NCBI GenBank assembly: GCA_963675755.2
Contig: CAXXMD010000002.1
Coordinates: forward strand, 1,984,001-2,048,000
Direction of reading: 5' to 3'
Source of the DNA: a bacterium
GTDB taxonomy: Bacteria; Zhuqueibacterota; Zhuqueibacteria; Residuimicrobiales; Krinioviventaceae
DNA length: 64,000 nt
The position numbers were made by a program, and so were the translations under genes. This document shows positions 13,386 through 48,563 of this stretch, piece by piece. Below the pieces are notes generated by a model. The model was not told the DNA's origin, did no database searches, and worked only from the letters and a program-made list of their open reading frames with translations. Each line of letters begins with the position of its first letter. The first letter of the stretch is position 1.

Positions 13386-13604
13386 CTAGCTTCTATACCT
13401 TATAATTCAGAGCAATTCATGAAAAACATCATGAATCATATTCAATAAAGAATTTAATAAAATTATACTTAACCACAAAGTATAAAATAAAATTCTTTTA
13501 ATACACCAAATATAATGTAACAATATTTATGCCGAACACATTAACATAAATACTTGAAAAGATAAAAAGAAACAGAAAACCCCTGGCAGGCAGCAAAAAC
13601 CAGA

Positions 13605-31140: not shown

Positions 31141-32559
31141 TCATACAGATGGCTTTATATTTTGATTTACATGAAACAGATTCTTTGGATCATATTTATT
31201 TTTGATCTTTACGAGTCTATCATAATTCATTTTATACGATGCTTTTACCCGGTCCTCTCCTTCTTCCATCATAAAATTCACATAAGCGCCACCAGCAGAA
31301 TAGGGATGGAGTGCATCATAATAATCTTTTGTCCATTTGGTTATTTTTCCATTATTTACCGGATCAGGATCTACTCCAACAATCACCTGCGACCAGGTTG
31401 CATCCCGATAACTCCAGGGTGTATCAGTCGCTCCAACTTTATGGGCCGCTCTATCAATAGGATAAAGATGCATTGTAGAATGACCGGTAGGCAATTGTTC
31501 GCTGAATTTTGCATGCTGTTTCACCGCATCATCACTCAATTCATTTACAAAATCTGCCCGCCAGTACCATTGTAATCCTGATGGATAGAAAACATCAAAC
31601 ATGCTCTGCAATGCCGGATAAGGAACAGGACCTACATGCTGAAAATCAGGGGGACCGAATTCCAGAATGGGTTTAAATTCTTTTTCAGCATTGTCCATAG
31701 AGCCCATATAATTCCATATAACACCGCACATCTTTTTACCATGCAAATGTTCCGGAAAAGGAGGCCCCGGTACAGTTAACGTGGCAAAAAATCCATACAA
31801 ATCATCAGAAGTATTTACAATAAAATCCCTATACCATTTCAAGACTTTTTCGGTTTTAGAGATATCCCATAGAGTGGGACCAGCATATACAGTATGAACC
31901 GGATGGGCCTGAAACAAAAAAGATGTGACAACGCCAAAATTGCCTCCACCTCCCCGAACAGCCCAAAACAGATCCTTGTTTTCTTTTGCATTCGCAACAA
32001 CAAATGAACCGTCGGCAAGAACCATTTCCACTTCTTTCAGATTGTCAATTGTCAGTCCATATTTTCGGGTCAGATAACCCAGTCCACCGCCAAGTGTAAG
32101 GCCCCCAACACCTGTAGTAGAAATAATCCCCGCAGGTACGGCCAATCCAAATGGATGGGTTGCATGGTCTACATCTCCCCATTTACATCCCCCTCCCACA
32201 CGTACGGTTTGGTTCTTTTTATCAATATGAGTATAACTGATATGTGACAAATCAATAACCAATCCATGATCACAAATCCCCAATCCCGCCGCATTATGCC
32301 CACCTCCACGAATGGATAACAAGAGATTGTTATTCCTGCCAAAGTTAACCGCAGTAATTACATCCGCAACATCCGCACAATACGCAATCATTGCAGGACG
32401 TTTATGAATCATACCATTATAAACCTTGCAGGCATTTTCATATTCGGGATCCCCTTCAACAACCAATTCTCCTCTCAAGCTCTCTCTAAACTCGTTTATC
32501 AAGATACTTTTAAGCATTGCTTTTCCACCTAATGCCGTAATTACAGAAAGATCTAACAT
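31141..32559 (-). CDS. FAD-linked oxidoreductase (FAD_binding_4 + BBE domain)
   Basis: IRGGGHN, TGVGGLTLGGGLG, DLFWAVRGGGGNFGVVT, YVNF..KYDPKNLF. ATG 32559 has a GGAGG RBS. Confidence 0.92.
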   Translation of the reverse strand: MLDLSVITALGGKAMLKSILINEFRESLRGELVVEGDPEYENACKVYNGMIHKRPAMIAYCADVADVITAVNFGRNNNLLLSIRGGGHNAAGLGICDHGLVIDLSHISYTHIDKKNQTVRVGGGCKWGDVDHATHPFGLAVPAGIISTTGVGGLTLGGGLGYLTRKYGLTIDNLKEVEMVLADGSFVVANAKENKDLFWAVRGGGGNFGVVTSFLFQAHPVHTVYAGPTLWDISKTEKVLKWYRDFIVNTSDDLYGFFATLTVPGPPFPEHLHGKKMCGVIWNYMGSMDNAEKEFKPILEFGPPDFQHVGPVPYPALQSMFDVFYPSGLQWYWRADFVNELSDDAVKQHAKFSEQLPTGHSTMHLYPIDRAAHKVGATDTPWSYRDATWSQVIVGVDPDPVNNGKITKWTKDYYDALHPYSAGGAYVNFMMEEGEDRVKASYKMNYDRLVKIKNKYDPKNLFHVNQNIKPSV

Positions 32560-32606
32560 AGTTACCTCCGTAATATTATATACAAGAAATAAACAGATCC
32601 ATACTA

Positions 32607-33518
32607 TCATTTATTGATTTTAAATTGAAAAACATCAGGCCTGTTATAGTGGCCTGCCGCATCAAACATCCTTTTCGATACCGTTATCAAATCAAGATCA
32701 ATTTCAGCATAGAGTATTTCTTCTTTTTCTCCAACCGGACCCGCAATGATTTCTCCTTGTGGATTGATGATACAGCTGTTTCCTGCATTAATCCAATCTC
32801 TTCCTTCCGGATACAAGGATTTAAAATCATACCGGTCTGGAATATCATCTATTTGCAAAGCCATACAACAGCTAATAACAAACAAACCTCCTTCCCGTGC
32901 TATATACTGCATGGCTAAAAGCCAATTATTACTCTTGTCCCATGTTGGTGCAGCTAAAATTTGAGTTCCTGCCTGGTACATTGACATTCTTGCCAACGGC
33001 ATAAAATTCTCCCAACAGATCAAACCACCCAGCCTGGCAAAAGATGTATCAAATGCATGTAAAGTTGAGCCATCTCCCTGGGCCCATATAAGCCGTTCTC
33101 CTCCCGTTGGCATCAATTTCCTATGTTTACCCATGATCTCTCCCTTGTCATCGATAAACAACATTGTATTATAAAGACTTGAATTACTGGATTCGCTGTT
33201 ACGCTCGTTTATCCCCATAACCACATATATACCGGCCTTTTTTGCAGCTTTACAGAGTTGTTCCGTGGAATTGTCCGGAATACTGACAGCATTATTTATC
33301 AATTCCTTGTACAATTCATTTAAAACAGCACCTTTGCTGTTTGGCACAAGCCAAACCCAATCCGGATAACCAGCAATAAATGCTTCGGGAAAAACGATCA
33401 GTTTGGCTCCCTGTTGACCTGCTTTTTCAATAATATCGCATGCTTTATTAACCGTTTCAGTCTTATTCAAAAAAACCGGGGACACTTGGGCGGCTGCCAC
33501 TAGAATCTTTTCGTTCAT
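32607..33518 (-). CDS. nitrilase (carbon-nitrogen hydrolase)
   Basis: Catalytic triad FPEA / HRKLMPT / ICWEN, and GHYNRPDVF. An alternative upstream start exists at 33581. Confidence 0.92.
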   Translation of the reverse strand: MNEKILVAAAQVSPVFLNKTETVNKACDIIEKAGQQGAKLIVFPEAFIAGYPDWVWLVPNSKGAVLNELYKELINNAVSIPDNSTEQLCKAAKKAGIYVVMGINERNSESSNSSLYNTMLFIDDKGEIMGKHRKLMPTGGERLIWAQGDGSTLHAFDTSFARLGGLICWENFMPLARMSMYQAGTQILAAPTWDKSNNWLLAMQYIAREGGLFVISCCMALQIDDIPDRYDFKSLYPEGRDWINAGNSCIINPQGEIIAGPVGEKEEILYAEIDLDLITVSKRMFDAAGHYNRPDVFQFKINK

Positions 33519-33943
33519 AGAAACTCCTTTTGCAGAGTACAAGAAAACAATTACAATAAAGACAAATTGCAACCGATGCATTACAAACTCCTTATCATTC
33601 AGGTTAAAATGATGAATCATCTGTTTACAATTAAACTGTGCGGATATTTTTATTTTTTAAATTTAAATTATGCTGTTTTGAAGAAAAGAAGATTGAAAGG
33701 AATAAAACAACTTTTAGGAATCAACAAAATGCACTCAAACAGCATCAAACAAAGACCAAAAACATTCAATCCAAGAACTGAATTCAATTCAGGACAGGGT
33801 ATAGTTAACAGCGGCAAATAACAAATTATTCTCACACTATGGATATAATATTAAATAGTTGCAAAATAAGCAGAGTTTAAGATTGAATAATGGATTAACA
33901 AAATGGATTCTACAGGTGCAGTTATTATGGGTTGGAATTTTTG

Positions 33944-33977
33944 ACCCACCGGGAGATTTGCTCTCCCGGTAGGTTTT
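33944..33977. terminator. hairpin at the end of the phage-like operon
   Basis: ACCGGGAGA-tttgc-TCTCCCGGT directly after the last gene's stop. The T-tract is on the + strand, so orientation is uncertain. Confidence 0.55.
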
Positions 33978-33980
33978 ATA

Positions 33981-34256
33981 TCAGTCCCCATCCACATTGG
34001 CCAGCGGCACTTTGAATTCACCGGCAACGGATTCGATTACGGATTTTACCGCGCTTACGGCGGCATCGTCCAGTTCTGTTCCTGAACGCTCGCTGAGCGG
34101 CTCCAACTCCGCATCCACAACAGGATAAAGCGTTGCAAGTGCAACAGCACCATGCTCGGGTTCACGCTCCATTAATGATTGCAGGAGCGGTTTTAACACC
34201 TGTTCCAATGCCAGTTTAATCACCGGTGCCAGCAAATTCAACAATTGTTCTTTCAT
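33981..34256 (-). CDS. small helical protein at the end of the phage-like operon (possible lysis accessory)
   Basis: Strong AAGGGGAG RBS, 91 aa with an amphipathic N-terminus. Function inferred from position only. Confidence 0.55.
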   Translation of the reverse strand: MKEQLLNLLAPVIKLALEQVLKPLLQSLMEREPEHGAVALATLYPVVDAELEPLSERSGTELDDAAVSAVKSVIESVAGEFKVPLANVDGD

Positions 34257-34318
34257 GTGTTCTCCCCTTTACGAGTTGATTAATCACTATGAGGATTCCC
34301 CCCTTGTGAGGTACACCA

Positions 34319-34540
34319 TCATTTTTTATGTACCGACTTTAATCTCGTCAGCATCTGTTTTTCTCTTACCAGCGCGTCACCCCCTTCTTTTAACCGGCCC
34401 CGCTTTTCCCCCAATCCAAAAGTCATCCACACAAAACCGGCTTTGCACAACCAGGGCGATATCGTTTGTCCCGCCCCCGGAATAAAATTCACCGCTCCCC
34501 CCAAGCCCAAAAGCAGCAATCCCGTCAACGTTTTTGGCAA
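34319..34540 (-). CDS. holin-like small membrane protein
   Basis: AGGAGG RBS with TTG start, two hydrophobic segments, basic C-terminus, position after the tail genes. Confidence 0.45.
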   Translation of the reverse strand: MPKTLTGLLLLGLGGAVNFIPGAGQTISPWLCKAGFVWMTFGLGEKRGRLKEGGDALVREKQMLTRLKSVHKK

Positions 34541-34556
34541 ATCTCCTCCTTTCTTT

Positions 34557-34940
34557 TTATTGTTCTACAAATTTCAATTCTATATCCCGTTTGGCTTCAT
34601 CCAATCCCCCTGTATAATATTCAGGTATTTCACACGCCATTCTCACAGCAATATTTACAGATTCCCCCTTAACATTGCAATATTGCAACTGCATCAGCTC
34701 GTCGTTACCCGCAAGCTTTGCCAGTTTATCAAACGTTGATCGTCTTGCGGTCCGAATGGAACAAGTATAAACATCATATGCCTGCCCATATCGCAGAATG
34801 AATGGCCTGCGATTCTGCAGCCGTTTCAATGTAAACGGTTGAATGATTCTGACTTTTAGGGACCGTACTTCATCCGAATAAAAAGTTAATGTGACAGATT
34901 CCCCTCCACCGGGTACGGTTATATACAATGCTTCTGTCAT
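34557..34940 (-). CDS. distal tail (Dit)-like protein, paralog of 37936-38319
   Basis: 127 aa, ATGA-coupled to the hub gene; shares FY.DEVR and a C-terminal L.(F/L).E with 37936-38319. Confidence 0.5.
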   Translation of the reverse strand: MTEALYITVPGGGESVTLTFYSDEVRSLKVRIIQPFTLKRLQNRRPFILRYGQAYDVYTCSIRTARRSTFDKLAKLAGNDELMQLQYCNVKGESVNIAVRMACEIPEYYTGGLDEAKRDIELKFVEQ

Positions 34941-37900
34941 ATTGATATCTCCTGCTCATGGGTAATATCATATCCCTTCAACAGCACTTCAATCCCATCA
35001 GTAAATGATATCTGTTTACCGGTAACCCGAATATATCGATCCAATTCAGGTTTTTCACTCTGTACATGCAGCACATCACCAATCTCGATGGGGATTCCCT
35101 GCAAGTTCAACCGACACTGAATCACCAGTACCCCAAAAGCCCACATTTCATATAATTCCGAGACCAGCAAAGCAACGGATTCCGATGCAAAATAACCCGG
35201 CAGATCAAGTTGAGCGCTTTGCAGCAAACCGGATTGCAATTGGCTGAAAGGAATATCCGTTGGGCCGGTATATATAGATCTGAAAAAATAGGTATTGTTA
35301 TCATAATCATATCCATAGCGCAATTGCCATGAATTCACCCGTTCCCTAGAACCCATTTCCGTCCCGGGTAATAAATTGGTATCCCCACTTGTATCTACGA
35401 CTGGTGCCTCACAACGACGATGCACAAATAACCGTTCAACACCCCAGTTATCATTATACAAGAATCCATTCAAATGCTGTGCAACACATTCCAATGCCTG
35501 CAAAACAGACATGTCCCGCTCTAACGATAAACTGATATGCAATCCATTATCCTCACACCAGAGATATTCACGATCAAAATTATAATTGGGGTCAGGCAGG
35601 TCCCTTTTTTTGATATAAACATCACTTCCACACGTCAAATCCTCACCAAAAGGATTATTAACAGATACCCGAATACATGGAGGATATGATGCCTGAACAT
35701 CGTTGCCAGAGGCAATAACAAACTCCAGTCCCCCAATTATTAAAATTTCTCCGGTTTGTATTTTCACAGGTGCCGTTACCGCAACATTTATCTCTGTATT
35801 GCCTGCATCAACATCCTCAGCCAACACTCCAATTCGCTTTTGTTCAAAAAAGGATGAAGCCGCAATTAAATGCTGAGGTGTCTCTGCATGTTCACGTAAC
35901 AATTGATAGATAACAGAAACCGGATTAACATCCACCCAGATTCTACCTGTTTTGAATGAAACCTTGTTCCCGCTTCGGGTGGTCCCGTTCCAGGCTGATG
36001 CCAGAATAACAAGCTGATCACCGCCCTGTACCGTATCAAAAGAAAAACCCAGTCTGTAAATCGTCAATCCATCACGTTCCATTATATATGCATATTCACC
36101 ATCCATGGCAATGGCATTGGCATTTCTCAGATAAAAGGGGCCATCCGCTCCACGTATGGTTTCAATCAACCTGGCATTGAATGGATCAGAAATATCAATT
36201 ACACTCAACGCATGATTGATGGAAGACACACTGAACAACCGGTCTCCCTCAATCGTAAACGCCATTCCCGAGCTGTACCAGGGGGAGCCGGCACTGCCAA
36301 ATTCTGTTGCGGTAAAAGGATTTTCAATATCACTGATATCGATCACTAATATTCTACCGTATCGTCCTTTAACAAAGGCATAGTTTCCGGATATTCTCAC
36401 AGAATAGCCGCCTTCGTCAATGGCGAGTGTGGTCACCAGCACCGGATTACCCGGTGCGTCAATATCAATGATCACAAGACGATTATCATGACTTGAAACT
36501 GTCAAAAGATAGTGGTCCGTAATATCAAAATCCCACAAACCCTGCATATAATTTGGTGATCCCATTCCTCCAAATCTTGATAAATATTGAATATTGAACG
36601 GATCATCGACATCGAACACACATACCGTATCTTGTCCCTGCACATATAAAAAATGGCCGTTCAATTTGCATTTCACCGCAAAAAAATCTTCCGGCACTCC
36701 TTCAGTCCCGGCGGTTTTGGTATCAATCAACACAGGATTATAAGGATCTGAAACATAAAAACACTTTAATTTGCCAATAAACGATCCACTGTTGATATCA
36801 ACGTATGCAACATACACATTATTGGATATTTTCTCTACTGCTGCATAAATACAGCTATCAGCAAATGAAATAGATGAACATTGTACAGGACTTGCAGGAT
36901 CACTCACATCCAGAATGACCAGTTTGCCTGTTTCCACAACCGGAGTGAAAACCCAATCCAGATCTTTAACCAGGTCCCATGCAAAACCCATATCATTATC
37001 CGGGCCGTTATACCTCCCGGTCATTCCATAATATCTGTCATAAACACGCCCATCCATTCCGGGCCCGGATAATGTATATTTTGTATTTGTGATAAAATCC
37101 AGCTGCCATTTACCTGGACGGCAGCCCGCTTGTGGGAAAATGGATTCACGCTCCAGATCGCATGATGCGTCATCATTCCAACGGATGCTAGAAGCGCCGG
37201 AATGCTCTCCACTCACGCACAATAATCGTGATGTTTCGTCCGAATCTACACCCACCAGTGCTCTGTCCAGCTTGCTTTTCCGCGAATCTACCAGAACCAT
37301 CCGAATAGCCCCGGCCAAAACTTCGGGCACTTTGAGTATCCGTCCCCGGAACAAAACCATGGGCTGCGCTGCACCCGCAAGATGCAGTCTGACCTGCACC
37401 TCTGTATTCTCTGGCATTTGCGAAAACAGATAGCCTCCCCGGGGCATATAAAAAGCCAGTGGCTCGGCAAGTGTGATCCTGTCCGTATGATTGTCGGCAG
37501 TATAACTCAATATTTCTACAATTTGCTGTTGCACCGAACCATAAAAATAATCTTCACCATACAGTACAATGCGTTCTCCCGATGCGTAGGTTACGCCTTC
37601 CTGATGCTGAATCAAAAGTTCGGAACTCCCGAATTCAGCAGCTTCCGCAACAATACTTTTGGCATGATGAAACGGGCTGGCTGGATTTATGGGTGACAGC
37701 GAGCCATCAGGATCAGCAATCTCTATCTCTACATCCCGCAAAACAGAACGTCCACCCCATTGCGGATCCATATCTCTGCTATTATCAAGAGGACTGATAT
37801 GGACGATACTGTTTTGTCCATCAATAACAATTCCCCTCTCTTCAGGGTCAACCAACAGGTCCAGATAATATTGCTGTCCTGCTGCATTTTCCAGTTCCTG

Positions 37901-37945
37901 CTGCCAGTCCAAAGGTAAGGTTTTATAATCCGGCATTATTCGCAC
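34937..37945 (-). CDS. tail tip/hub protein with an inserted LVIVD-repeat beta-propeller
   Basis: N-terminal hub-like LFRGRILKVP..IRMVLVD; central LVILDVSDP / LVIIDIDAP / ILVIDISD / LSVIDISDP repeats; C-terminal VNSWQLRYGYD..IEIGDVLHV..RVTG resembling phage tail/host-specificity domains. Confidence 0.65.
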   Translation of the reverse strand: MRIMPDYKTLPLDWQQELENAAGQQYYLDLLVDPEERGIVIDGQNSIVHISPLDNSRDMDPQWGGRSVLRDVEIEIADPDGSLSPINPASPFHHAKSIVAEAAEFGSSELLIQHQEGVTYASGERIVLYGEDYFYGSVQQQIVEILSYTADNHTDRITLAEPLAFYMPRGGYLFSQMPENTEVQVRLHLAGAAQPMVLFRGRILKVPEVLAGAIRMVLVDSRKSKLDRALVGVDSDETSRLLCVSGEHSGASSIRWNDDASCDLERESIFPQAGCRPGKWQLDFITNTKYTLSGPGMDGRVYDRYYGMTGRYNGPDNDMGFAWDLVKDLDWVFTPVVETGKLVILDVSDPASPVQCSSISFADSCIYAAVEKISNNVYVAYVDINSGSFIGKLKCFYVSDPYNPVLIDTKTAGTEGVPEDFFAVKCKLNGHFLYVQGQDTVCVFDVDDPFNIQYLSRFGGMGSPNYMQGLWDFDITDHYLLTVSSHDNRLVIIDIDAPGNPVLVTTLAIDEGGYSVRISGNYAFVKGRYGRILVIDISDIENPFTATEFGSAGSPWYSSGMAFTIEGDRLFSVSSINHALSVIDISDPFNARLIETIRGADGPFYLRNANAIAMDGEYAYIMERDGLTIYRLGFSFDTVQGGDQLVILASAWNGTTRSGNKVSFKTGRIWVDVNPVSVIYQLLREHAETPQHLIAASSFFEQKRIGVLAEDVDAGNTEINVAVTAPVKIQTGEILIIGGLEFVIASGNDVQASYPPCIRVSVNNPFGEDLTCGSDVYIKKRDLPDPNYNFDREYLWCEDNGLHISLSLERDMSVLQALECVAQHLNGFLYNDNWGVERLFVHRRCEAPVVDTSGDTNLLPGTEMGSRERVNSWQLRYGYDYDNNTYFFRSIYTGPTDIPFSQLQSGLLQSAQLDLPGYFASESVALLVSELYEMWAFGVLVIQCRLNLQGIPIEIGDVLHVQSEKPELDRYIRVTGKQISFTDGIEVLLKGYDITHEQEISI

Positions 37946-38319
37946 TCCAACAAGGTCAATACAGTTTCTGATTTTGCCGCGGATTGATGCCCAAACAAAA
38001 TCGTTTTTTCAAATTCAGGATACAGAATGCATTTCAGCTCAAGATCAGGATTTTTCCCAACAGCATAATGGACTGTCATCACATCCCTGATTGCCGTCAA
38101 TGTTTGGATACGCTCTGCCGAATCAGCATATATATCACAAATACGCATTTGAAGCGTATTCCATACGCCCCCTTCTGTCTCAATACCTGGGACCGTATTG
38201 CCATTTTCACGGACCTGTTGAAAGCGCAGAGGTTGTTTAATCACATCCCGTACCTCATCCCGATAAAATTGAATGGTATTTTCACCATACGCTACAGTGA
38301 CTGCCACATCCCTGCTCAT
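37936..38319 (-). CDS. distal tail (Dit)-like protein
   Basis: 127 aa, immediately before the hub gene, in the canonical Dit position. Confidence 0.5.
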   Translation of the reverse strand: MSRDVAVTVAYGENTIQFYRDEVRDVIKQPLRFQQVRENGNTVPGIETEGGVWNTLQMRICDIYADSAERIQTLTAIRDVMTVHYAVGKNPDLELKCILYPEFEKTILFGHQSAAKSETVLTLLECE

Positions 38320-38489
38320 GCGAACGGTCCCGCTGGTGGTTCAAAATAGCGTTCACGATATTTTATTCGCTGATAAACCCTGTCATCAATCCAGCTTTCA
38401 CGGTCTCTGTTTTGTTTATGCTCCAGAGAAGAGGTAACACCAGGAACAATTCTGGAATCCAATCCCAATGGCTGCTTTATTACGTTCAT
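38316..38489 (-). CDS. 57-aa protein in the tape-measure position
   Basis: Translated by hand: MNVIKQPLGLDSRIVPGVTSSLEHKQNRDRESWIDDRVYQRIKYRERYFEPPAGPFA. GGGGG RBS; ATGA overlaps with both neighbours; below the ORF-track cutoff. Confidence 0.65.
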   Translation of the reverse strand: MNVIKQPLGLDSRIVPGVTSSLEHKQNRDRESWIDDRVYQRIKYRERYFEPPAGPFA

Positions 38490-39295
38490 ATTTCCCCCTG
38501 TTCAGCAATAAATTTTCCATATACAACACGTATATCTGCATTTACCAGTGGAGCAGTATCGAACGCCAGTGCCTGCCCGTTCAACTCTATTCCGTCAGTC
38601 ACATATCTGCCCCAAGTACCTCCCGGCGTTGTTATTACCAGAGCCGCAATCGCCGGATGCGGCCAGCTTTCCGGAATATCAATATCCGGATTCAACAATT
38701 CAACTGGTTGCGTGGATAATTGAAATACCGTGGATGTACCATCCCCCGTAAACCGGTCCGTTCGCAATTCCACTCCCGCGGGAATCCGAAACGGCATCCG
38801 GGTTGATGTAAAGGGAATATCCATAAAATTACATCCATCTACAACCAACGTCCCGGGACTCTCGAGTACAATTTCCGGAAAAACGAAACTGAACTTGTGC
38901 TGCAACGTCTCTGTTCGATATACAGCCTCTAATGCTCCGGCTAGTCGATTATTCATAGTCATGGGAAACAGGAAGGGACCACTGGCAGCCAGCTCCAATC
39001 CAAGCGCAGCATCGAGCAGCTCACCCGCGCAGCTTGACAACATCCGGATTGCACCCCGGTATGCGTAATCAAACCCCAGTGGATGCGGTTCTTCATCATC
39101 CACTCCAAACACCTGCCTGACCTCTGCGGCGGCATAGGGATCCGTTTTCACACGCTCAACACCCTGCAAGTACAAGGGAGCAACGGGTATTGCCGAATCT
39201 CCAAGAGCCGGATGAAATCGAAACAATACATCTTTGCCCTGTAAACATTGTTGCGGTCCTGGTGCTGGTAACCGTTCAGTTAATGACATAATCAT
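38486..39295 (-). CDS. probable major tail (tube) protein with a C-terminal accessory domain
   Basis: Follows the terminator-like gene; beta-rich; C-terminal DRFTGDGTSTVFQLS motif common in phage tail proteins. Confidence 0.55.
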   Translation of the reverse strand: MIMSLTERLPAPGPQQCLQGKDVLFRFHPALGDSAIPVAPLYLQGVERVKTDPYAAAEVRQVFGVDDEEPHPLGFDYAYRGAIRMLSSCAGELLDAALGLELAASGPFLFPMTMNNRLAGALEAVYRTETLQHKFSFVFPEIVLESPGTLVVDGCNFMDIPFTSTRMPFRIPAGVELRTDRFTGDGTSTVFQLSTQPVELLNPDIDIPESWPHPAIAALVITTPGGTWGRYVTDGIELNGQALAFDTAPLVNADIRVVYGKFIAEQGEI

Positions 39296-39789
39296 TCCCC
39301 CTGCCTGACATTCAACTCAATTCTGAATTTACTGTGGATCATATCCCGATTTGCATTATGTTCACACACAGGCCCCTCAGATCCTTTTATCTGGATCCCG
39401 TGTGTTGTCAATGTTTGTGCACTGTGTAATACACCTTTTAGCTCCACATTGAATGTCCGTGTATGCAAATCAAAAGGATTGGTAAAACAGGATAAAAGCT
39501 CGCTCAAAATCACCTGGTGCTCATCAATCCCCCCGCTTGCTGGATCATTCCACACGCCAATTGTCAACTCGAACAACAATAACGGTTCGCAGCCCAGATA
39601 ATTTTCTTGTCCGTTTAAAACCGGTGTATTTACATAAATAACCGGATGTTCTACATGGTCCTGTATATTTTTATGATTATAACCGGGTTCAATTCTACAT
39701 CCCCTCAATACAGCCGAATCCAGCGCAACTGCATTTAGCAGTGCCATAAAACACGATTGTATTTCTGTCAAAACTCTGTCTCTGTTCAT
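39292..39789 (-). CDS. probable tail terminator/completion protein
   Basis: Position between neck and tube genes; HPVIYV..FELTIGVW pattern; ATG 39789 with an AGGAG RBS. Confidence 0.5.
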   Translation of the reverse strand: MNRDRVLTEIQSCFMALLNAVALDSAVLRGCRIEPGYNHKNIQDHVEHPVIYVNTPVLNGQENYLGCEPLLLFELTIGVWNDPASGGIDEHQVILSELLSCFTNPFDLHTRTFNVELKGVLHSAQTLTTHGIQIKGSEGPVCEHNANRDMIHSKFRIELNVRQGE

Positions 39790-39793
39790 ATGC

Positions 39794-40258
39794 CTACTCC
39801 TGACCCTGTATTTGACGAAGAATTGCAAACTGGGCCACTTTTTCATCCGATGACAAAATCTCACTTTGCTTTAACCGATACCGGCAGCCATTGTACACAA
39901 AATAATCATTCAACAGGTCCAGTGTATTTAAATCCAGAAAAGTACCATCCTCTTCATTCACCGTTCCAATGATCATCATGTCCCGGGCAGTTACATTGCC
40001 CACAACCTGAAACTGTACAAAGGTTTTCACCATGGTATAGTTGAATACAAAGGCCTTTATGGACAATTCAGAAACGACAGTCCCTGTCCGCCCAACACCC
40101 TCGCAATCCGTATCAACAGGATGATTGCGATGCCATTCAGGCGAGTATACCCCGGTCTTTTCCGCACAGGGACAATTACTGCCGCCCCCATGTCGGACCA
40201 GCGTTAATCCGGTACCATAACGCAACACATCCTGACAAAATAATTGATGGTCAGTCAT
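39794..40258 (-). CDS. probable head-closure (stopper) protein
   Basis: Position after the adaptor; CPC..C motif; C-terminal DYFVYNGCRYRL typical of head-closure proteins. Confidence 0.55.
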   Translation of the reverse strand: MTDHQLFCQDVLRYGTGLTLVRHGGGSNCPCAEKTGVYSPEWHRNHPVDTDCEGVGRTGTVVSELSIKAFVFNYTMVKTFVQFQVVGNVTARDMMIIGTVNEEDGTFLDLNTLDLLNDYFVYNGCRYRLKQSEILSSDEKVAQFAILRQIQGQE

Positions 40259-40655
40259 ATTTGCTTCCCCCAAACGATCCGCTCCACCACGGCCCATGTT
40301 CTGAACATCCCAGCAAATTCAGATATTGCTGCCATTCCTCCATCAGCGTTTGACAGATTTGTGCCTTTTCCTGTGCGGAAACCGGTTTGATCTCTACAGG
40401 ACCGCTTTTACTGCCTCTGACCGGAGCCGAACTGACAACCTTGTGCGCAACAAAAGCAACCTGTGCCGCTTTTGCCAGCACCAGCTCTGATGCAGTCAAT
40501 CCTGCCAAGTCCAATCCGTTTTTATCCAGAACCAATTCCAACCAGGCATCCCCAGCTGGAATAAATGCGGTACCCGCAAGTTCCTGATCCGACACTTCCA
40601 GCTCCGTCATTGTCCGTAACCTTGCTCTTACATCCGCTGCTGTAATATTTGCCAT
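40251..40655 (-). CDS. probable head-tail adaptor protein
   Basis: ITAADVRARL helical N-terminus, KSGPVEI hairpin, position directly after the capsid gene. Confidence 0.6.
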   Translation of the reverse strand: MANITAADVRARLRTMTELEVSDQELAGTAFIPAGDAWLELVLDKNGLDLAGLTASELVLAKAAQVAFVAHKVVSSAPVRGSKSGPVEIKPVSAQEKAQICQTLMEEWQQYLNLLGCSEHGPWWSGSFGGSKYD

Positions 40656-40667
40656 ATTTTCACCTGT

Positions 40668-40700
40668 TTAAAAACAGGGGCGATTGACCGCCCCTGTAAA
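40668..40700 (-). terminator. intrinsic terminator after the capsid gene
   Basis: ACAGGGGCG-attgac-CGCCCCTGT stem; on the minus strand it is followed by TTTT. Confidence 0.75.
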
Positions 40701-40709
40701 ATGAAAGAA

Positions 40710-41795
40710 CTAACTGTGCTCAACCTCAAGACATCCAATAGCCTGTGGATCGATCACATCAAATGCACTTCGTTTCGATACCACAGTCCTTACCTGCTGC
40801 TTGGCGATGATTCGCTCGGTTTCGGTCAGATTCATGCTGTCATTGGTCACATACCCAATTGCATGTGCGGTATCGACTCCCACCAGTTTGTCCGAAGGAA
40901 CAATGTCCCGGTCCCATTCCACACCCCGTGGCAGAATCATACCGGTTTGTCCCCATTGCGCAACCGGATTCTGCATATCAGACAATGCATCCCTGAAATC
41001 GATCATATTGCTCTTGCGGCCCACAAACGCGTTCAAAGCATAAGGCTGCGGCAATGTGGATGCAAAGGTAATGATATCCTTTTTTACAATACTTCCGCTG
41101 GTAGCCGTCTGGCAGGTCTGCTCAGCTTTTAAACCATTATTGTTACCATCGCCGTTCAGCAGCGCATTCACAAGCGCGTCCGACTCATCAAGACCAATCT
41201 GTTTCCCGATACGTTGCAATGCCACCGCGTAAATATTGATTGGCGTTGCATAGATCACTTCATAATCGAACAAAATATTGCGACCAAATTTCGCCAGCGA
41301 GATGCTCTGCTTGCCGGCTTTGATCTGGGTCTGTGGAAACTCTGCGCCCCTCGCCGTTTTTTTCAACTCTCGTGATGCCTGGCTGTCTTCAAGATACAAT
41401 TTGCGGAAATCCAGCCCTGTAATAACCGAAGTTACCGCGACGAACTCGGGTACAATCGATGCCGACAACGCCCCCGCGTAAACGCGATTTGAAATAAATT
41501 CCGGAAACAGTACGCTGGTATCCGCACTCTGGAAAAATTTTTCCACCCGGTCAGTATGCATGCCAAACGCTTTGATATCGTGCGCCTGCAATGCCATCTC
41601 AAATGCCGACAACGGCGGGTCTTCTCCTTTGCGAAGGTATGAGAGCCGCTTTAATTCCTTTTCATAGTTGGCAAGTCCCCAATACTCGCTTGGCTGCTCA
41701 CCCTTTTCTACGCGGTACTCTTCAAGCCATTCACCAAAGGATTTACCCCGCCGTGCGGCTTCATCGTACATCCCGATTTCCAGTTTAAATGCCAT
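40710..41795 (-). CDS. major capsid protein (HK97-fold type)
   Basis: VEKFF..VLFPEFI, ARGAEFP, ISLAKFGRNILFDYEVI, E.ERII.KQ; size and position after protease and decoration genes; GGGGAG RBS before ATG 41795. Confidence 0.85.
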   Translation of the reverse strand: MAFKLEIGMYDEAARRGKSFGEWLEEYRVEKGEQPSEYWGLANYEKELKRLSYLRKGEDPPLSAFEMALQAHDIKAFGMHTDRVEKFFQSADTSVLFPEFISNRVYAGALSASIVPEFVAVTSVITGLDFRKLYLEDSQASRELKKTARGAEFPQTQIKAGKQSISLAKFGRNILFDYEVIYATPINIYAVALQRIGKQIGLDESDALVNALLNGDGNNNGLKAEQTCQTATSGSIVKKDIITFASTLPQPYALNAFVGRKSNMIDFRDALSDMQNPVAQWGQTGMILPRGVEWDRDIVPSDKLVGVDTAHAIGYVTNDSMNLTETERIIAKQQVRTVVSKRSAFDVIDPQAIGCLEVEHS

Positions 41796-41820
41796 GTAAA
41801 TTCTCCCCAATTTGATTTAA

Positions 41821-42270
41821 TTAAAACAAAACATCCACAGTTAACGTGTCCTGATGTTTGGCAACAATGGCTCCCCATCCGCCGGTACCGCCATCCGCCA
41901 TATACGTATAGTCATCTCCGGTAATCGCTACTGCGTCTTTCAAGCCAACAAGTCCTGAATATTTCAGGTTTTTAACCAGAACAGGTGTATGATGACCACC
42001 CACATCATCTGTGTAATGGAACATTCTCACACCCAGCAGATACCCAAATTCATTGTCTTTTTCGCAGGTAATGATCTCACCATCCGCAACATCGCCGCTT
42101 GCAGGACTCGTAACTTCGTAATTGTTCAACCAGGTCAGTTTTACCAGTCTGCCCTCTACATTTTCATTGTTTGCCATCAGAGCGGTAATCTCGTCCTTAA
42201 AGGTGCTGTCGGGCACACAGCTAAGCTCTAAAAAGTTTCCGGTGTCTCCCCCGCCTATTCCTCTCATCAT
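41821..42270 (-). CDS. probable capsid decoration/cement protein
   Basis: 149 aa, Gly-rich beta protein between protease and capsid genes; AGGAGG RBS; ends TVDVLF. Confidence 0.55.
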   Translation of the reverse strand: MMRGIGGGDTGNFLELSCVPDSTFKDEITALMANNENVEGRLVKLTWLNNYEVTSPASGDVADGEIITCEKDNEFGYLLGVRMFHYTDDVGGHHTPVLVKNLKYSGLVGLKDAVAITGDDYTYMADGGTGGWGAIVAKHQDTLTVDVLF

Positions 42271-42288
42271 GTTCCTCCTTGTTTAAAA

Positions 42289-43461
42289 TTAGGATTGTAT
42301 GCTGACTGGTGCCCGAAAAGACCGACTATGCTTTTGGGCCAAATCAGTATCGTTTTGTTTAAACTCCCGCAAATCCTCTGTCAATATCTGTTGATGAGGA
42401 TGTTTTTCATCAAATGCTTTTCTGGAATCCGATACGAGTATCTTTAGCTCCTCCAGAGAAAGCAATTCCAGATTTTGTTTCTCTGCTTCAATACAATCGG
42501 GATTGTCTTTAATCTCCCCCGCAAGACAACCGAATTTAACCGCCTCATTGACCAGCAATTGTCTTTCAGGATCTTTCATTTGTGCACCCTTATCCGGTGT
42601 TCTTTCTGCATCTCTCTTTGCAGCGATTGATTTTCGTGTCCGTGCACCATACTGTGCTCCCAGAAACACATGCGAGCCTTCAAGCGCTTCGGCTTGCCGG
42701 TTTTCTGTGTTACGGTATTCCCACCACAAGATCTTGTCCCCATTACCCGACTTTACAGGTGCCAGTTCCGGAGCACGGAAACCAATACTCATGTCTGAAA
42801 TGATCCCCGAATCGATTTTACGGATTTTCTCAACATCATCCGCCAGCAGATAATAGCTGGCAACCAGCCAATACAAACCATTGTCCTTTTCCGAAATCTG
42901 TTTGTACTGTTCCTTCAGATCTGCACTGCAATGCGGTCCCGCAAGGTTCATCATTTCATCGATGCCAACCTTTTGCAATCGCGATTTGAAATAACGCCCT
43001 TCACCGGTTCCTTCCCAGTCATGCCCGGTCAACACCGCCTTGCCAATAATGGTTTTCTCAAAGGATTGTAATACATCCTTGCTGAACCGTTCCCCGTCCC
43101 GGTCTACAACATTGTGACACAGCCAGGCTTCGTAAACGCGAAAATCTTTGCGATCAAAGGATGACGCGTTTACCATCAGCTTGCACATTGCATCCCAATC
43201 CTCATCACCAATCTCTACCGATTTGGTATGCACACTGAATTGTTTTTGAATACCAGCCAGCCTGTCAAAAGATTTCACCCGGCTCAACCGGTCAAAACGC
43301 TGTTCACAATCCGCCCAGCTCCCATATGCTTTGGCAGGAAACCTCACTTCGGTCAGCCCTGTGTCGGGATGTTTACGACAGTCCAGCAATCCCGCCGGGA
43401 TCTGTTCCGTCTCATCCAAAACACCATAATAATACAACCTGCTTTTTCTTAGAAATTGCAT
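42289..43461 (-). CDS. prohead protease with C-terminal scaffold region
   Basis: HNVVDRDGERFS..GKAVLTGHDW, IDSGIISDMSIGF, EGSHVFLGAQ match HK97-type maturation protease motifs; charged helical C-terminus. Confidence 0.75.
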   Translation of the reverse strand: MQFLRKSRLYYYGVLDETEQIPAGLLDCRKHPDTGLTEVRFPAKAYGSWADCEQRFDRLSRVKSFDRLAGIQKQFSVHTKSVEIGDEDWDAMCKLMVNASSFDRKDFRVYEAWLCHNVVDRDGERFSKDVLQSFEKTIIGKAVLTGHDWEGTGEGRYFKSRLQKVGIDEMMNLAGPHCSADLKEQYKQISEKDNGLYWLVASYYLLADDVEKIRKIDSGIISDMSIGFRAPELAPVKSGNGDKILWWEYRNTENRQAEALEGSHVFLGAQYGARTRKSIAAKRDAERTPDKGAQMKDPERQLLVNEAVKFGCLAGEIKDNPDCIEAEKQNLELLSLEELKILVSDSRKAFDEKHPHQQILTEDLREFKQNDTDLAQKHSRSFRAPVSIQS

Positions 43462-43479
43462 ATCCCCTCTTTTTATTTA

Positions 43480-43743
43480 TTAAAAATTTGCTAAATCACT
43501 TTTCATGCTAAAACAATTTTCAATGAATTGGAGTGCATCGCCTTTATGCGCTTGACCGCCTACTGGCGGTATGCGGCGAGTCGCAGACTCGCTAAAATTC
43601 ACACTTTTTCTCACCTTTCCCTTGACGCCTTCTACACCCATCTCTTTGAATCGCTGTTTTCCATCATTACAATGGACTTTGCCAATTCTCTCCAATCGCC
43701 CGGATTTATGGTTTCTCGGATTAATTACTTTTTGATTTTGCAT
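43480..43743 (-). CDS. small basic ORF, possible remnant of a minor head (MuF/gp7-like) gene
   Basis: AAGGGGA RBS; RLERIGKVHCNDGKQRFKEMGV loosely resembles the MuF core; the 3' part crosses palindromes. Confidence 0.3.
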   Translation of the reverse strand: MQNQKVINPRNHKSGRLERIGKVHCNDGKQRFKEMGVEGVKGKVRKSVNFSESATRRIPPVGGQAHKGDALQFIENCFSMKSDLANF

Positions 43744-43782
43744 AAAACATCCCCTTGATTTAATTGATTATCCACTGGACGG

Positions 43783-45144
43783 TTACGAATTCAACAGTAT
43801 CTGCCTTGCTTCTTTTACAGCACCATTTGCCTTACTGTCATTGGCAATCCGGTTCAATACCTCCTCTGCACGCGTCACCCCCTGTAACGTTTTCCCCGGA
43901 AAAAAGGGACCGCTTCGCACCAGATGTACAAACTCTTCATCATCAATCATCCCCATATCATACATCCGCTCAAAAGCGCACAGTTCTTTATCCAGCGCTT
44001 GCGCGTTCAAGAGTCTGGCACGGGCCTGCTCGGTCTTGTCCATTAAATTGACTTCTCGCCATTCCAGGTTCCATTGTGCCCCCGCCTCACCTTGTAATAC
44101 CAGAAACGTATTGATCACCCGTCTCAAAATCGGTTCAACCTTGGTCCGGTACGCGTTAATATTCGCCACAATCATATCATTCTGGTTATTGCTCATACGC
44201 TCGGTAGTGGTCCATTTGTACAAGCCAAACATAAATGGCGGCAGCCCGGTCTTGGTAATGATCTCTTCCTGCATTACATGTACCGGTACCTGTAGATTCA
44301 GCACAGGTTCCTGTCCCCCCAATACCTGTACATCAATCCCGGCGCCTTCCGGCACTGCCGCTGCAACATCCCGCACATGCCCCTGTTTGCGGTCCTGAAA
44401 AACACGGGTAATATCGCTTTGCAATCCTTCTGCTGCCTGTTTAACCCGATTAAAATCGCTGCCCCTTCCTCCGCTAACTTTGACCAGAAATGTAGGGTCC
44501 CCAACCCGCCATACCTGGTTCTCAATGGCCTGCTGTATGCGCAAAAAAATCTTGACCACAAAGGGCAGCGAGTAAAACAGACTGTACCCCTGCGGGTGCC
44601 CGTCACGCTGGTCAAAACACAGATAATAGATAAATTCCGGATCATCAAACGGCAGAATATTCAACTCGGAATCCGTCAACTGTCCCAGTTTCAACGTCCC
44701 GTCACGCTCCACAAAACGAAAACTATTGGCGCGCGCAATTTTCAATCGGTCCACACCATTATAATCCGTGTTCGGCACCAATTCTCCAAACCCCATCCCT
44801 TTGGCTAATGCGGAATCACAAATCTGGTCCACCCAGGTATTCAGTCCCCGGTTAAAATGATTAACCTTGACATCTCCCTTGAATGTATTCAGCAGTTTTT
44901 CGATACGTGGATTCGGTGAAGATAGCCGAAAATCCCCAATCAACCGAACCAGTTTGATCACCGCCACATCCAGTATTGGTACAGCTTCTCGCATTAGATC
45001 GTATAAATCCATATTGAATTGCAACGGTTGGTAACCCCTCAGCGCAGTCGCAAAAGGCCCCTCCCATGCGTCACGTGTTTGCGCCCGACTGATCCTGACC
45101 TGCTGTGTATCCCCACCAAACCATACTTTAAACAGATTTTTCAT
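43783..45144 (-). CDS. portal protein
   Basis: 453 aa, first gene of the head module; LYDLMREAVPILDVAV, GMGFGELV, HPQGYSLFYSLPF, ITKTGLPPFMFGL; GAGGGGAG RBS. Confidence 0.8.
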   Translation of the reverse strand: MKNLFKVWFGGDTQQVRISRAQTRDAWEGPFATALRGYQPLQFNMDLYDLMREAVPILDVAVIKLVRLIGDFRLSSPNPRIEKLLNTFKGDVKVNHFNRGLNTWVDQICDSALAKGMGFGELVPNTDYNGVDRLKIARANSFRFVERDGTLKLGQLTDSELNILPFDDPEFIYYLCFDQRDGHPQGYSLFYSLPFVVKIFLRIQQAIENQVWRVGDPTFLVKVSGGRGSDFNRVKQAAEGLQSDITRVFQDRKQGHVRDVAAAVPEGAGIDVQVLGGQEPVLNLQVPVHVMQEEIITKTGLPPFMFGLYKWTTTERMSNNQNDMIVANINAYRTKVEPILRRVINTFLVLQGEAGAQWNLEWREVNLMDKTEQARARLLNAQALDKELCAFERMYDMGMIDDEEFVHLVRSGPFFPGKTLQGVTRAEEVLNRIANDSKANGAVKEARQILLNS

Positions 45145-45250
45145 TTCATCTCCCCTCTGTAAATCACAACCAAAAGATAAACGAAAATCCTGAAAATCAA
45201 AGCAACATTGGGTAACTTACACAACGCAGAAACAAAAAAAAGCTCTTATC

Positions 45251-45695
45251 CTACGGGCGGACCTATGTGTCTGCACCCATCTCTGCCCCTTCGTAAGGGC
45301 GGACCTGTGTGTCCGCCCCCATCTCTGCCCCTTCGTAAGGACGGACCTGTGTGTCTGCACCCATCTCTGCCACATCGTACGAGCGGACCTGCGTGTCCGC
45401 CCCCATCTCTGCCCCTTCGTAAGGACGGACCTGTGTGTCCGCCCCCAGCTCTGCCCCATCGTAAGGGCGGACCTGTGTGTCTGCCTCCATCTCTGCCCCT
45501 TCGTAAGGGCGGACCTGTGTGTCCGCTCCCATCTCTGCCCCATCGTAAGGGCGGACCTATGTGTCCGCCCCCAGCTCTGGCCATCGTAAGGACGGACCTG
45601 TGTGTCCGCTCCCATCTCTGCCCCTTCGTAAGGGCGGACCTGTGTGTCCGCCTCCATCTCTGCCCCTTCGTAAGGGCGGACCTGTGTGTCCGCCC
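45251..45695 (+). repeat. tandem array of 11 REP-like palindromes, 42-bp period
   Basis: Unit GTAA-GGGCGGAC-CTGTGT-GTCCGCCC-ccatctctgccccttc, starting at 45251, 45293, 45335, 45377, 45419, 45461, 45503, 45545 (41 bp), 45586, 45628 and 45670. Confidence 0.92.
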
Positions 45696-47702: not shown

Positions 47703-48401
47703 TTACTCTTTAACCCCGCCAAAAACTTTTTTCAACTCTCCATAGGGTAAAGAAATATTAAAGTATATTTCATATTCTTTGCCATCTTGAGTTTTTGCGC
47801 GCATGACATCAAAATCATATACACCCTCATGAGACAACCATTGTTCCAAATGCTGCATTTGGAAATGCTCCAGAATAATATACTCTTCATCAGTAGATAT
47901 CACTAAAAATGCCGTTTTGGGCGATTTGCCATCACCAGATGCAATAATAGAATGGATCAATCCATCATAAATATTATAATGCAGATTTGAATTTTCATCA
48001 TCCCCAATTTTCCGATAGATATAACCGCAATACAAATGCGTGTTAATATCCACAAAATTCTTGGTAAATATCGAATCCGCTATCATCAGCGCTTCCGAAT
48101 ATTTTTCATCATCCATGAGTTCACGCATTCGGGCATGCCGCTTGCTGGTAGATCGGTCATACGGCGAATACAACTCGGATTTGGTAAAAGCCATTCTCAG
48201 ACTAAAAAAATCATCAAACTGATTTTCAATTAATTTTTGCAGCATCTCTTTAAAATCGTCCGGTTCAAAAGAATTGATATATTCAAAGAAATGGTAATTT
48301 GAATCCGGAACCTGCGTCGTATCAGACATTGTTGGAACCTGATCATTTTGCGCAAACAATCGTATCGCAATAAACAGCACAATAAAGATATACCTTTTCA
48401 C
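47703..48401 (-). CDS. secreted DUF4919-like protein
   Basis: Signal peptide from GTG 48401; SIIASGDGKSPKTAFLVISTDEEY and YFNIS motifs. Confidence 0.7.
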   Translation of the reverse strand: MKRYIFIVLFIAIRLFAQNDQVPTMSDTTQVPDSNYHFFEYINSFEPDDFKEMLQKLIENQFDDFFSLRMAFTKSELYSPYDRSTSKRHARMRELMDDEKYSEALMIADSIFTKNFVDINTHLYCGYIYRKIGDDENSNLHYNIYDGLIHSIIASGDGKSPKTAFLVISTDEEYIILEHFQMQHLEQWLSHEGVYDFDVMRAKTQDGKEYEIYFNISLPYGELKKVFGGVKE

Positions 48402-48563
48402 GATTCTTTCTTCTCCCGTTTTCCTGAATAAAATAACATCAAGCCCAAAATAACAAATAAAGCACCATAAATCAACCCTTAACACATATTTATGAATTTT
48501 ACTTGCATTTCTTTACCGCTTGTTTTATTATAAACTGTTGTTGGATTGAAACAGGATTTAATT

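Follow-up and report, generated by a model that had tools for sequence, protein, structure and literature searches.

Within the 64,000-nt window analysed here (the whole stretch, G000:C2:1984001-2048000), positions 33981-45144 of the minus strand carry an 11.2-kb cluster of phage-type head and tail genes, which we call locus B. A second locus of ~5 kb, holding terminase, lysis and repressor genes (locus A; L021), lies on the same contig at ~1,880,428-1,885,398, ~133 kb away (~98 kb in the sister species). On balance we favour the reading that the two loci together form a chromosomally fixed, vertically inherited and selection-maintained particle system derived from a siphovirus, similar to a gene transfer agent (GTA) or to PBSX, with a tail that has lost its ruler, the tape measure protein; this judgement covers the whole statement, including the mechanism set out below. 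The part that concerns a domesticated element inherited vertically and kept by selection is likely in its own right: the sequences compared indicate inheritance with the chromosome since before two host genera split, and purifying selection on all 14 believable structural genes. An earlier note on the window had proposed a domesticated particle in an FCB-type host. The domesticated locus is backed by synteny, by ratios of nonsynonymous to synonymous substitution rates (dN/dS) and by phylogeny, and the picture of a system made of structural genes only gives way to one with a second locus and no full tape measure.

The genome under study (G000; 6.48 Mb in three contigs, 98% complete) was compared with that of a sister species (G001, a single 6.5-Mb contig), with three genomes of the genus g5 (G005, G014 and G017, the last 95% complete in 180 contigs) and with further members of the host family; a relative of this MAG lineage is labelled candidate division KSB1.

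Two loci with complementary gene content

The features of locus B are given below in window coordinates. Here and throughout, dN/dS values are Nei-Gojobori estimates between G000 and G001 unless stated otherwise, and protein lengths are in amino acids (aa).

43783-45144, minus strand: g01, portal protein (453 aa; phrog_30703, E 1.6e-66; 98% identity in G001; dN/dS 0.028)
43462-43782, minus strand: spacer with the doubtful open reading frame (ORF) g02 (43480-43743), a probable deletion scar
42289-43461, minus strand: g03, prohead protease with a C-terminal helical (scaffold-like) region (390 aa; by fold comparison; dN/dS 0.13)
41821-42270, minus strand: g04, head decoration/accessory position (149 aa; by position only; kept in all relatives; dN/dS 0.08)
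40710-41810, minus strand: g05, HK97-type major capsid protein (PF05065, E 1.6e-12; phrog_3922, E 1.8e-53; dN/dS 0.017)
40251-40655, minus strand: g06, head-tail adaptor position (134 aa; by position only; conserved in full and reduced relatives; dN/dS 0.125)
39794-40297, minus strand: g07, head-tail connector position (relatives' alignments start at residue 14; dN/dS 0.16)
39292-39864, minus strand: g08, tail terminator or neck position (relatives' alignments start near residue 20-26; dN/dS 0.18)
38486-39295, minus strand: g09, major tail (tube) protein with a C-terminal Ig-like part (269 aa; model pLDDT 74)
38316-38489, minus strand: g10, tape measure relic (57 aa; the C-terminal ~35 aa of a tape measure protein; dN/dS 0.20)
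37936-38319, minus strand: g11, distal-tail (Dit) position (127 aa; by position; paralogue of g13)
34937-37945, minus strand: g12, tail hub / receptor-binding position (1002 aa; central LVIVD beta-propeller)
34557-34940, minus strand: g13, paralogue of g11 (127 aa; dN/dS 0.37)
34319-34540, minus strand: g14, holin-like by inspection (73 aa; two hydrophobic stretches, charged C-terminus; 97% identity in G001, 66-70% in g5; dN/dS 0.10)
33981-34256, minus strand: g15, last gene of locus B (91 aa; acidic, helical by eye; dN/dS 0.05)
33948-33970, no strand assigned: GC-rich hairpin directly 3' of g15, a terminator candidate (same stem, different loop in G001)

The count of ~15 co-oriented genes in 11.2 kb made earlier holds for 14 believable intact minus-strand genes and is doubtful for the fifteenth ORF; g02 was not detected in genus g5, has a dN/dS of 0.63 between G000 and G001, and is probably not a real gene. 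As had been noted, the main genes are free of visible frameshifts, and tblastn with each of them finds one match, over the full length, in G001, in G017 and in the G014-like metagenome contig L066. The ATGA coupling also described is seen as 4-bp overlaps at g08/g09, g09/g10, g10/g11 and g12/g13; the g11/g12 overlap is 10 bp.

Locus A was found by tblastn of a complete relative's proteins against the whole G000 genome. The statement that no terminase or endolysin gene accompanies the cluster is true of the window, and both genes are present in the genome ~133 kb away. The genes recognised in locus A are the following.

C2:1,881,260-1,882,732: large terminase TerL (57.6% identity over the full length to that of a full relative; phrog_2, E 1.3e-30)
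Locus A, divergent from the other genes: CI-like repressor with helix-turn-helix (HTH) and S24 domains (phrog_4, E 4.2e-28; PF00717, E 7.7e-22)
L021 11584-12531: RecE/YqaJ-type exonuclease, first gene of the locus-A operon (phrog_434, E 1.1e-89)
Locus A operon: 115-aa ORF (no match in Pfam, PHROGs or NCBIfam)
Locus A, small-terminase position: 146-aa HTH protein (weak Terminase_5 match, E 1e-4)
L021 9073-9255, directly after TerL: basic 60-aa ORF (weak phrog_31329 match, E 2.7e-4, and nothing found in NCBIfam; kept in G000, G001 and G014)
Locus A: endolysin (phrog_7, E 2.9e-25; PF00959, E 2.8e-17)

The gene contents of the two loci are complementary, with no duplication: TerL stands in the locus that has no portal, the portal in the locus that has no TerL, and the lysis genes are divided between the endolysin of locus A and the holin-like g14 of locus B. 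TerL, portal and capsid all have the same full phages as their nearest relatives. TerL keeps the motif-bearing blocks common to phage TerLs. The repressor retains an Ala-Gly site, a GDSM serine and a lysine, which we take to be its self-cleavage motifs, and these residues fit a predicted RecA-stimulated self-cleavage.

In G001, locus A is syntenic, with 88-99% aa identity; in G014 it has the same gene order on another contig, with 52-73% identity. The earlier note had held that a missing phage half displaced by rearrangement or misassembly would speak against its proposal. The half does lie elsewhere, and the split is conserved across species and in G014, so that it belongs to the architecture of the system and does not reflect misassembly or a recent rearrangement.

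Some further features of locus A were observed in passing. The exonuclease has no recognisable annealing partner and is under strong constraint (dN/dS 0.057), a puzzling retention in a particle system that no longer replicates. At L021 8849-9072, a hairpin after the 60-aa ORF is followed by a non-coding stretch of ~40 nt, conserved across genera, ahead of the endolysin. Adjoining the locus, L021 2099-5395 encodes a 1098-aa secreted protein with a type IX sorting tail, which matches the Binary_toxB calcium-binding domain (Pfam, E 2e-12) as well as a laminin-G-like domain; Por_Secre_tail proteins of this sort are numerous near both loci.

Descent, selection and phage relatives

A capsid query found matches in 6 of 61 related genomes, G000 counted, and in 5 of the 19 family genomes at E<=1e-20. 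The reduced form described above occurs in G000, G001, G014 and G017. Of these, G001 contains a full prophage as well; G004 and G029 contain only full phages. Two of the three genomes of genus g5 carry a reduced locus B with the same ruler stump. A metagenome scan yielded one independent reduced contig (L065) and a fragment (L069), while L064 and L066 belong to the G014 organism. In a collection of 5.8 billion proteins, only four 90%-clusters were at least 82% identical to the capsid, the next standing at 62%.

An orthologous syntenic cluster, one of the checks proposed for the window, is found both in the sister species and in the closest genus, g5. On the AbiE side, locus B keeps its synteny in G001; G017 and L066 have it intact and reduced in the same way. 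A scattering of the G014 cluster over three contigs was considered and rejected, L066 being 100% identical to all three pieces and contiguous, with the breaks at two copies of a short repeat. These are two inverted copies, ~82% alike, of a 190-290-bp repeat (L066 ~7871-8157 and 13467-13752), which sit exactly in both deletion scars, the portal-protease spacer and the tube-g10 spacer, where the G014 contigs switch. In the G014-type element, such repeats could mediate inversion of the g03-g09 segment.

A dN/dS well below 1, the second property that had been asked of the cluster, is seen across both loci (0.009-0.37, g02 excepted). In locus B the 14 genes other than g02 range over 0.017-0.37, the 12 apart from capsid and portal over 0.05-0.37, and six genes of locus A range from 0.009 (repressor) to 0.22 (endolysin). 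Between G017 and G014, 13 of 14 genes have a dN/dS of 0.05-0.28 with saturated dS, and all genes are open. Synonymous divergence of the element (dS 0.10-0.70; g10 1.5) compares with 0.12-0.73 for seven flanking host genes and 0.364 for rpoB.

The rpoB gene also served to gauge host divergence. GH31 and gamma-glutamyltranspeptidase (GGT) were discarded for this purpose as accessory genes without a g5 orthologue, the latter having none even in G001. By rpoB, g5 is the nearest of 10 other family genera (84% identity vs 74-80% for the rest), and capsid identity tracks rpoB identity in four of four pairs (capsid/rpoB aa identity 98.4/98.6, 83/83.5, 82/83.6 and 89/86.5). Maximum-likelihood trees built for the capsid (17 rows) and for the portal (15 rows) each place the reduced elements, five in number and from G000, G001, G017, L066 and L065 (four genomes and one independent contig), in one clade, with support 92/97 and 100/99, respectively. 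Its topology is the same in both trees, ((G000,G001),(L066,(G017,L065))), and the split follows host genus. Terminal and internal branches measure 0.01-0.27 in this clade vs 0.37-1.24 in the full phage relatives. The vertical phylogeny that had been suggested as a check is borne out in this small sample by two trees that mirror host genera with short branches.

Both loci have a GC content above their surroundings in every carrier. In G000 the values for GC1/GC2/GC3 are 0.55/0.39/0.45 and 0.56/0.39/0.53 for the loci, 0.48/0.34/0.38 for 29 neighbouring ORFs and 0.48/0.36/0.34 for a related full prophage. GC-rich islands were tried as a marker for further loci and dropped, the genome holding 76 islands of at least 3.5 kb with GC >0.45. 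With so many other islands, raised GC is a trait shared by the two loci that proves nothing alone. For RcGTA-like clusters, passages of PMC7360931 describe slow evolution and raised GC, via GC1 and GC2 only.

Complete siphovirus prophages of the same lineage do exist in related genomes, which corrects the first reading: there is a second copy in G001 (L015/L016), three are found in G004 (L017-L019), and another is carried by metagenome contig L067. Their gene order is that of locus B, and each structural gene from the portal to g13 has a homologue in them at 23-59% identity, with TerL at 55-58%. Unlike the reduced elements, they have TerL directly beside the portal, minor head genes, two ORFs in chaperone position, a methyltransferase and many small genes, together with host-like GC and long tree branches. 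Their tape measure of 1559-1653 aa lies, with the two chaperone-position ORFs, between tube and g11. Integrase and att sites, TerL beside the portal, and full tape measure with chaperones all stand in one locus in these full relatives; the element studied here has no integrase or att, a TerL away from the portal, no full tape measure and two loci. Reduction has stripped it of integrase, replication and minor head genes, of tail chaperones and of all but a remnant of the tape measure, and it is immobile as a phage. In agreement with the earlier note's mention of similar clusters in Clostridia, the next capsid relatives outside the family (28-33% identity; L055-L061) are in metagenome-assembled genomes (MAGs) of Oscillospiraceae, Acutalibacteraceae and Ruminococcus. 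Separately, G004 has three truncated portal fragments (C3:66461-67087, C3:111921-112547 and C9:148951-149577), each matching residues 18-226 in a 243-aa open frame.

Head, tail and upstream region

Portal, prohead protease and HK97-fold capsid protein, the components of an HK97-type head module, are all present, and the portal and capsid identities are, judged from sequence, secure. The likely true start of g05 is the ATG at 41795, giving 361 aa, the length of the representative of the capsid's database cluster. The g03 model (pLDDT 65) gave 14 Foldseek matches at E<=1e-3 in BFVD, the top one annotated 'Prohead serine protease' (E 2.7e-9), and one fold match there is annotated 'PBSX protein XkdF' (E 3.9e-3); against PDB, none reached E<=1e-3. 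In full phage relatives the minor head genes stand between portal and protease, and the spacer at this place in locus B is probably the scar of their deletion. Among the earlier gene labels, those of portal, capsid, prohead protease (by fold) and tube (a weak fold match) stand, while decoration, adaptor, stopper, terminator, Dit and hub follow from gene order alone. Pfam, PHROGs and NCBIfam returned no family for g04, g06-g08, g11 or g13-g15, and profile searches of PDB sequences with g03, g09, g12 and g11/g13 gave no meaningful match.

For the g09 model, Foldseek against PDB returned tail tube and Hcp chains (best E 2.2e-3, none reaching 1e-3), including a siphophage tube (prob 1.00) and the RcGTA virion entry 6tba; residues 180-215 bear a weak likeness to Ig light chains. 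These weak but thematically uniform matches suggest a tail-tube/Hcp fold. The next gene, previously listed as a mini-ORF, is indeed present and coupled to both neighbours by ATGA overlaps, and its identity is corrected here. When a g10 profile built from five orthologues was run against 9,476 ORFs of all loci compared, the only non-self matches were in tape measures from two full relatives, at their extreme C-termini (last ~35 residues; E 4.9e-6 and 0.027), so that g10 is read as a C-terminal stump of the ruler. This remnant measures 57-82 aa across the reduced elements. Of a siphovirus-type long non-contractile tail, then, the tube fold is weakly supported, the ruler is a relic, and no tail chaperone homologue was found in the G000 genome.

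The paralogy of g11 and g13 is seen by alignment, and a search with g13 also picks up the g11 position of L014 and L015 (E ~4e-5). The LVIVD repeats of g12 (PF08309, E 2.5e-13) belong to a protein with 33-90% identity in relatives; Atlas matches of g12 to viral tail proteins (scores 0.83-0.86) are a lead only. By eye, g14 appears holin-like.

Two candidate control elements precede the portal gene.

45197-45223, minus strand: dyad-bearing block TGTGTAAnTTACCCAAnnTTGCTTkGA, ~55-80 nt upstream of the portal ATG, a candidate regulator site overlapping a -33-like TTTG
45172-45179, minus strand: TATCTTTT box, candidate -7 promoter element (T.TCTT conserved in 5/5 aligned sequences)

The 27-nt block with its imperfect dyad is invariant in all five aligned upstream regions from two genera, while adjoining intergenic DNA has diverged. 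It is the sole close match in the G000 genome, all others having two mismatches to the 16-nt core, and among the 78 loci compared it occurs only upstream of reduced-element portals, in no full-phage or locus-A locus. Block, TATCTT box and ribosome-binding site follow one another in this order. Set against TAnnTTTG, which we take to be the Bacteroidota-type -7 consensus, the TATCTTTT box is inferred to be an element of that type. Being conserved and absent from full phages and locus A, the block points to a predicted promoter of locus B's own.

The flanks agree with the earlier description of a nitrilase and an AbiE pair (CN_hydrolase, E 1.4e-54; AbiEi_2, 1.1e-28; AbiEii, 9.1e-8): one side has the nitrilase with an FAD/BBE oxidase, the other AbiEi/AbiEii. 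It had also been said that no integrase or att repeat is near, and the nearest of the genome's four tyrosine recombinases is 225 kb off; end repeats do not rise above chance (longest shared word 10 nt, with 59/200 shuffles reaching at least 10). There is no tRNA within the window, and no Rfam family in the window or in L021.

A 42-bp unit containing a GGGCGGAC...GTCCGCCC hairpin is repeated 10.5 times (45255-45695) in the interval from AbiEi to the portal promoter. The corresponding place in G001 has just two copies, set apart from each other, about ten single copies occur elsewhere in G000, and, read in frame, the repeat yields spurious repeat ORFs of 90-180 aa on both strands. The neighbourhood is rich in indels: the nitrilase and FAD/BBE oxidase pair (31141-33620) and a pair of DUF4919 and gamma-glutamyltranspeptidase genes (47703-50246) are missing from the otherwise syntenic G001 region.

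Proposed function, alternatives and known systems

In the mechanism that we propose, DNA damage would lead the repressor to cleave itself, after which locus A would be transcribed and one of its products, or a host factor, would activate the portal operon via the conserved dyad and promoter. Capsids would assemble and TerL would fill them with DNA by the headful; a tail with the 57-82-aa tape measure remnant would be joined to the heads, and the holin-like g14 and the endolysin would release the particles. With ~98-133 kb between the loci, the complete gene set would not fit into one head, assuming an ordinary HK97-type head of this protein size; like GTAs and PBSX, the particles would then be filled mostly with host DNA. 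The tail genes have been under purifying selection long after the ruler was lost, which argues that some tail structure is still needed. Tail length scales with tape measure length, as established for lambda, so the tail is probably very short.

Several observations weigh against a two-locus particle system of this kind. Every genome compared is an uncultured MAG. The range is narrow, with the reduced form in 4 of 19 family genomes and in none outside the family, and G005 lacks it within genus g5; co-divergence is based on two genera only. Neither TerL nor the exonuclease was detected in G017 (95% complete, 180 contigs), and with no locus A found there the coupling of the loci is seen in only three of four carriers. 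The dyad of the portal promoter has no counterpart in locus A and hence gives no sign of co-regulation. GC3 is raised here too, vs only GC1 and GC2 in RcGTA as passages of PMC7360931 have it. The main difficulty is the ruler. Searches of G000 by tblastn with the tape measures of three relatives found no full tape measure, and phrog_28 was detected in none of three carriers (G000, G014 and G017), the tape measure in the full prophage of G001 being detected as a positive control. A siphovirus tail without ruler or chaperones may fail to assemble or to eject DNA, and the missing tape measure raises doubt about DNA delivery.

That the particles actually transfer DNA between cells we consider less likely than not. 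Similarly doubtful is the proposal of an independently domesticated GTA (viriform) family in a KSB1/FCB-type lineage, with its gene set divided into a regulatory, packaging and lysis part and a structural part, whose short-tailed, ruler-less particles would ferry host DNA. As far as our searches show, it would be the first such family outside Proteobacteria, Spirochaetes and Archaea; a limited literature search on gene transfer agents found no such element in KSB1 or Bacteroidetes.

Given the doubt over DNA injection by a ruler-less tail, we keep as a live rival, though an unlikely one, domestication for another role, either as a PBSX-like killing particle or as a defence that poisons the assembly of infecting relatives via the truncated tape measure or mismatched tail parts. 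The same conservation evidence speaks for such a role as for a two-locus particle system, and the tape measure relic that makes DNA delivery doubtful would suit it; complete members of the same phage lineage are in circulation among these hosts, with one in G001 and three in G004, and an AbiE pair adjoins the locus in G000 and G001. However, genus g5 does not have the AbiE neighbourhood, and constraint is strongest on portal, capsid and TerL (dN/dS 0.017-0.07), indicating that filled heads are what selection maintains.

The earlier note named a decayed prophage as the alternative. Such a dead prophage, here split by a rearrangement and in the course of being lost, with ORFs intact by chance, we consider improbable. 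The missing half is indeed elsewhere in the genome, many phage genes have been deleted and the tape measure truncated, g02 resembles a decaying remnant, and 4 of 19 family genomes is a patchy distribution. Frameshifts, stops and a dN/dS moving toward 1, as expected of decay, are nevertheless not what is seen: in G000 and G001 the 14 believable genes of locus B and all seven of locus A have open frames, as do those of locus B over the extent of each contig in G017, L066 and L065 despite saturated synonymous sites between genera, dN/dS is 0.009-0.37, the same deletions and the same split are common to both genera, and the non-coding promoter block is conserved. A helper-dependent, satellite-like mobile element borrowing its tape measure, chaperones and other functions from a full phage of its lineage is very improbable: full relatives encode precisely what the element lacks (tape measure, chaperones, minor head protein), and G001 carries such a prophage, but there is no integrase within 225 kb and no end repeat, synteny and dS are host-like, the loci are too distant for joint packaging, and the single capsid match in each of G000, G014 and G017 means no resident helper there.

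The two-locus particle system, which we continue to favour, has phage ancestors that still circulate in the same host family, so that steps of domestication can be read directly: the loss of integrase, replication genes, minor head genes, chaperones and ruler, and the division into two loci. A tail module long under selection without its tape measure challenges the textbook view of the ruler as indispensable and predicts the shape of the particle. It also follows that a structural cluster without a terminase calls for a search of the whole genome before it is named a remnant or a GTA.

Among known systems, PBSX-type defective prophages of Bacillus are like the proposed system in being chromosomally fixed, repressor-controlled, lytic producers of particles whose heads hold host DNA. 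They differ from it in occupying one locus and in having a contractile tail and a complete tape measure, and no sequence kinship between the two is detectable. Few independent GTA lineages are known, and passages of PMC11841831 report that reviews call for more, and more diverse, ones. GTA attributes described in passages of PMC9662315 are endogenisation, often over several loci, a gene set not packageable whole, vertical co-diversification, slow evolution and particles that deliver host DNA; the present element is endogenised over several loci, is inherited in a mostly vertical, host-tracking manner and evolves more slowly than its viral homologues. RcGTA (Rhodogtaviriformidae, Alphaproteobacteria) likewise has a phage-derived head-tail cluster fixed in the chromosome with further genes at other loci, and shares vertical inheritance, slower evolution than viral homologues and GC above the host (passages of PMC9662315 and PMC7360931); the g09 model weakly matches the tube chain of 6tba. 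Sequence kinship with RcGTA does not extend beyond shared HK97, portal and tube folds, and here, unlike there, the structural cluster lacks TerL, a CI-type S24 repressor is the control gene, the tape measure is a 57-82-aa relic, the host belongs to a KSB1-related MAG lineage, and the system is known from its genes alone. VSH-1/BhGTA of Brachyspira (Brachygtaviriformidae) differs in lineage and in an unrelated host phylum, the likeness being drawn from descriptions, not sequences. The title of Stanton et al. 2009 on VSH-1 reportedly speaks of a 'divided genome'. In VSH-1/BhGTA, as passages of PMC9662315 describe it, the GTA 'genome' is likely dispersed over multiple loci, and in this it resembles the two-locus system studied here.

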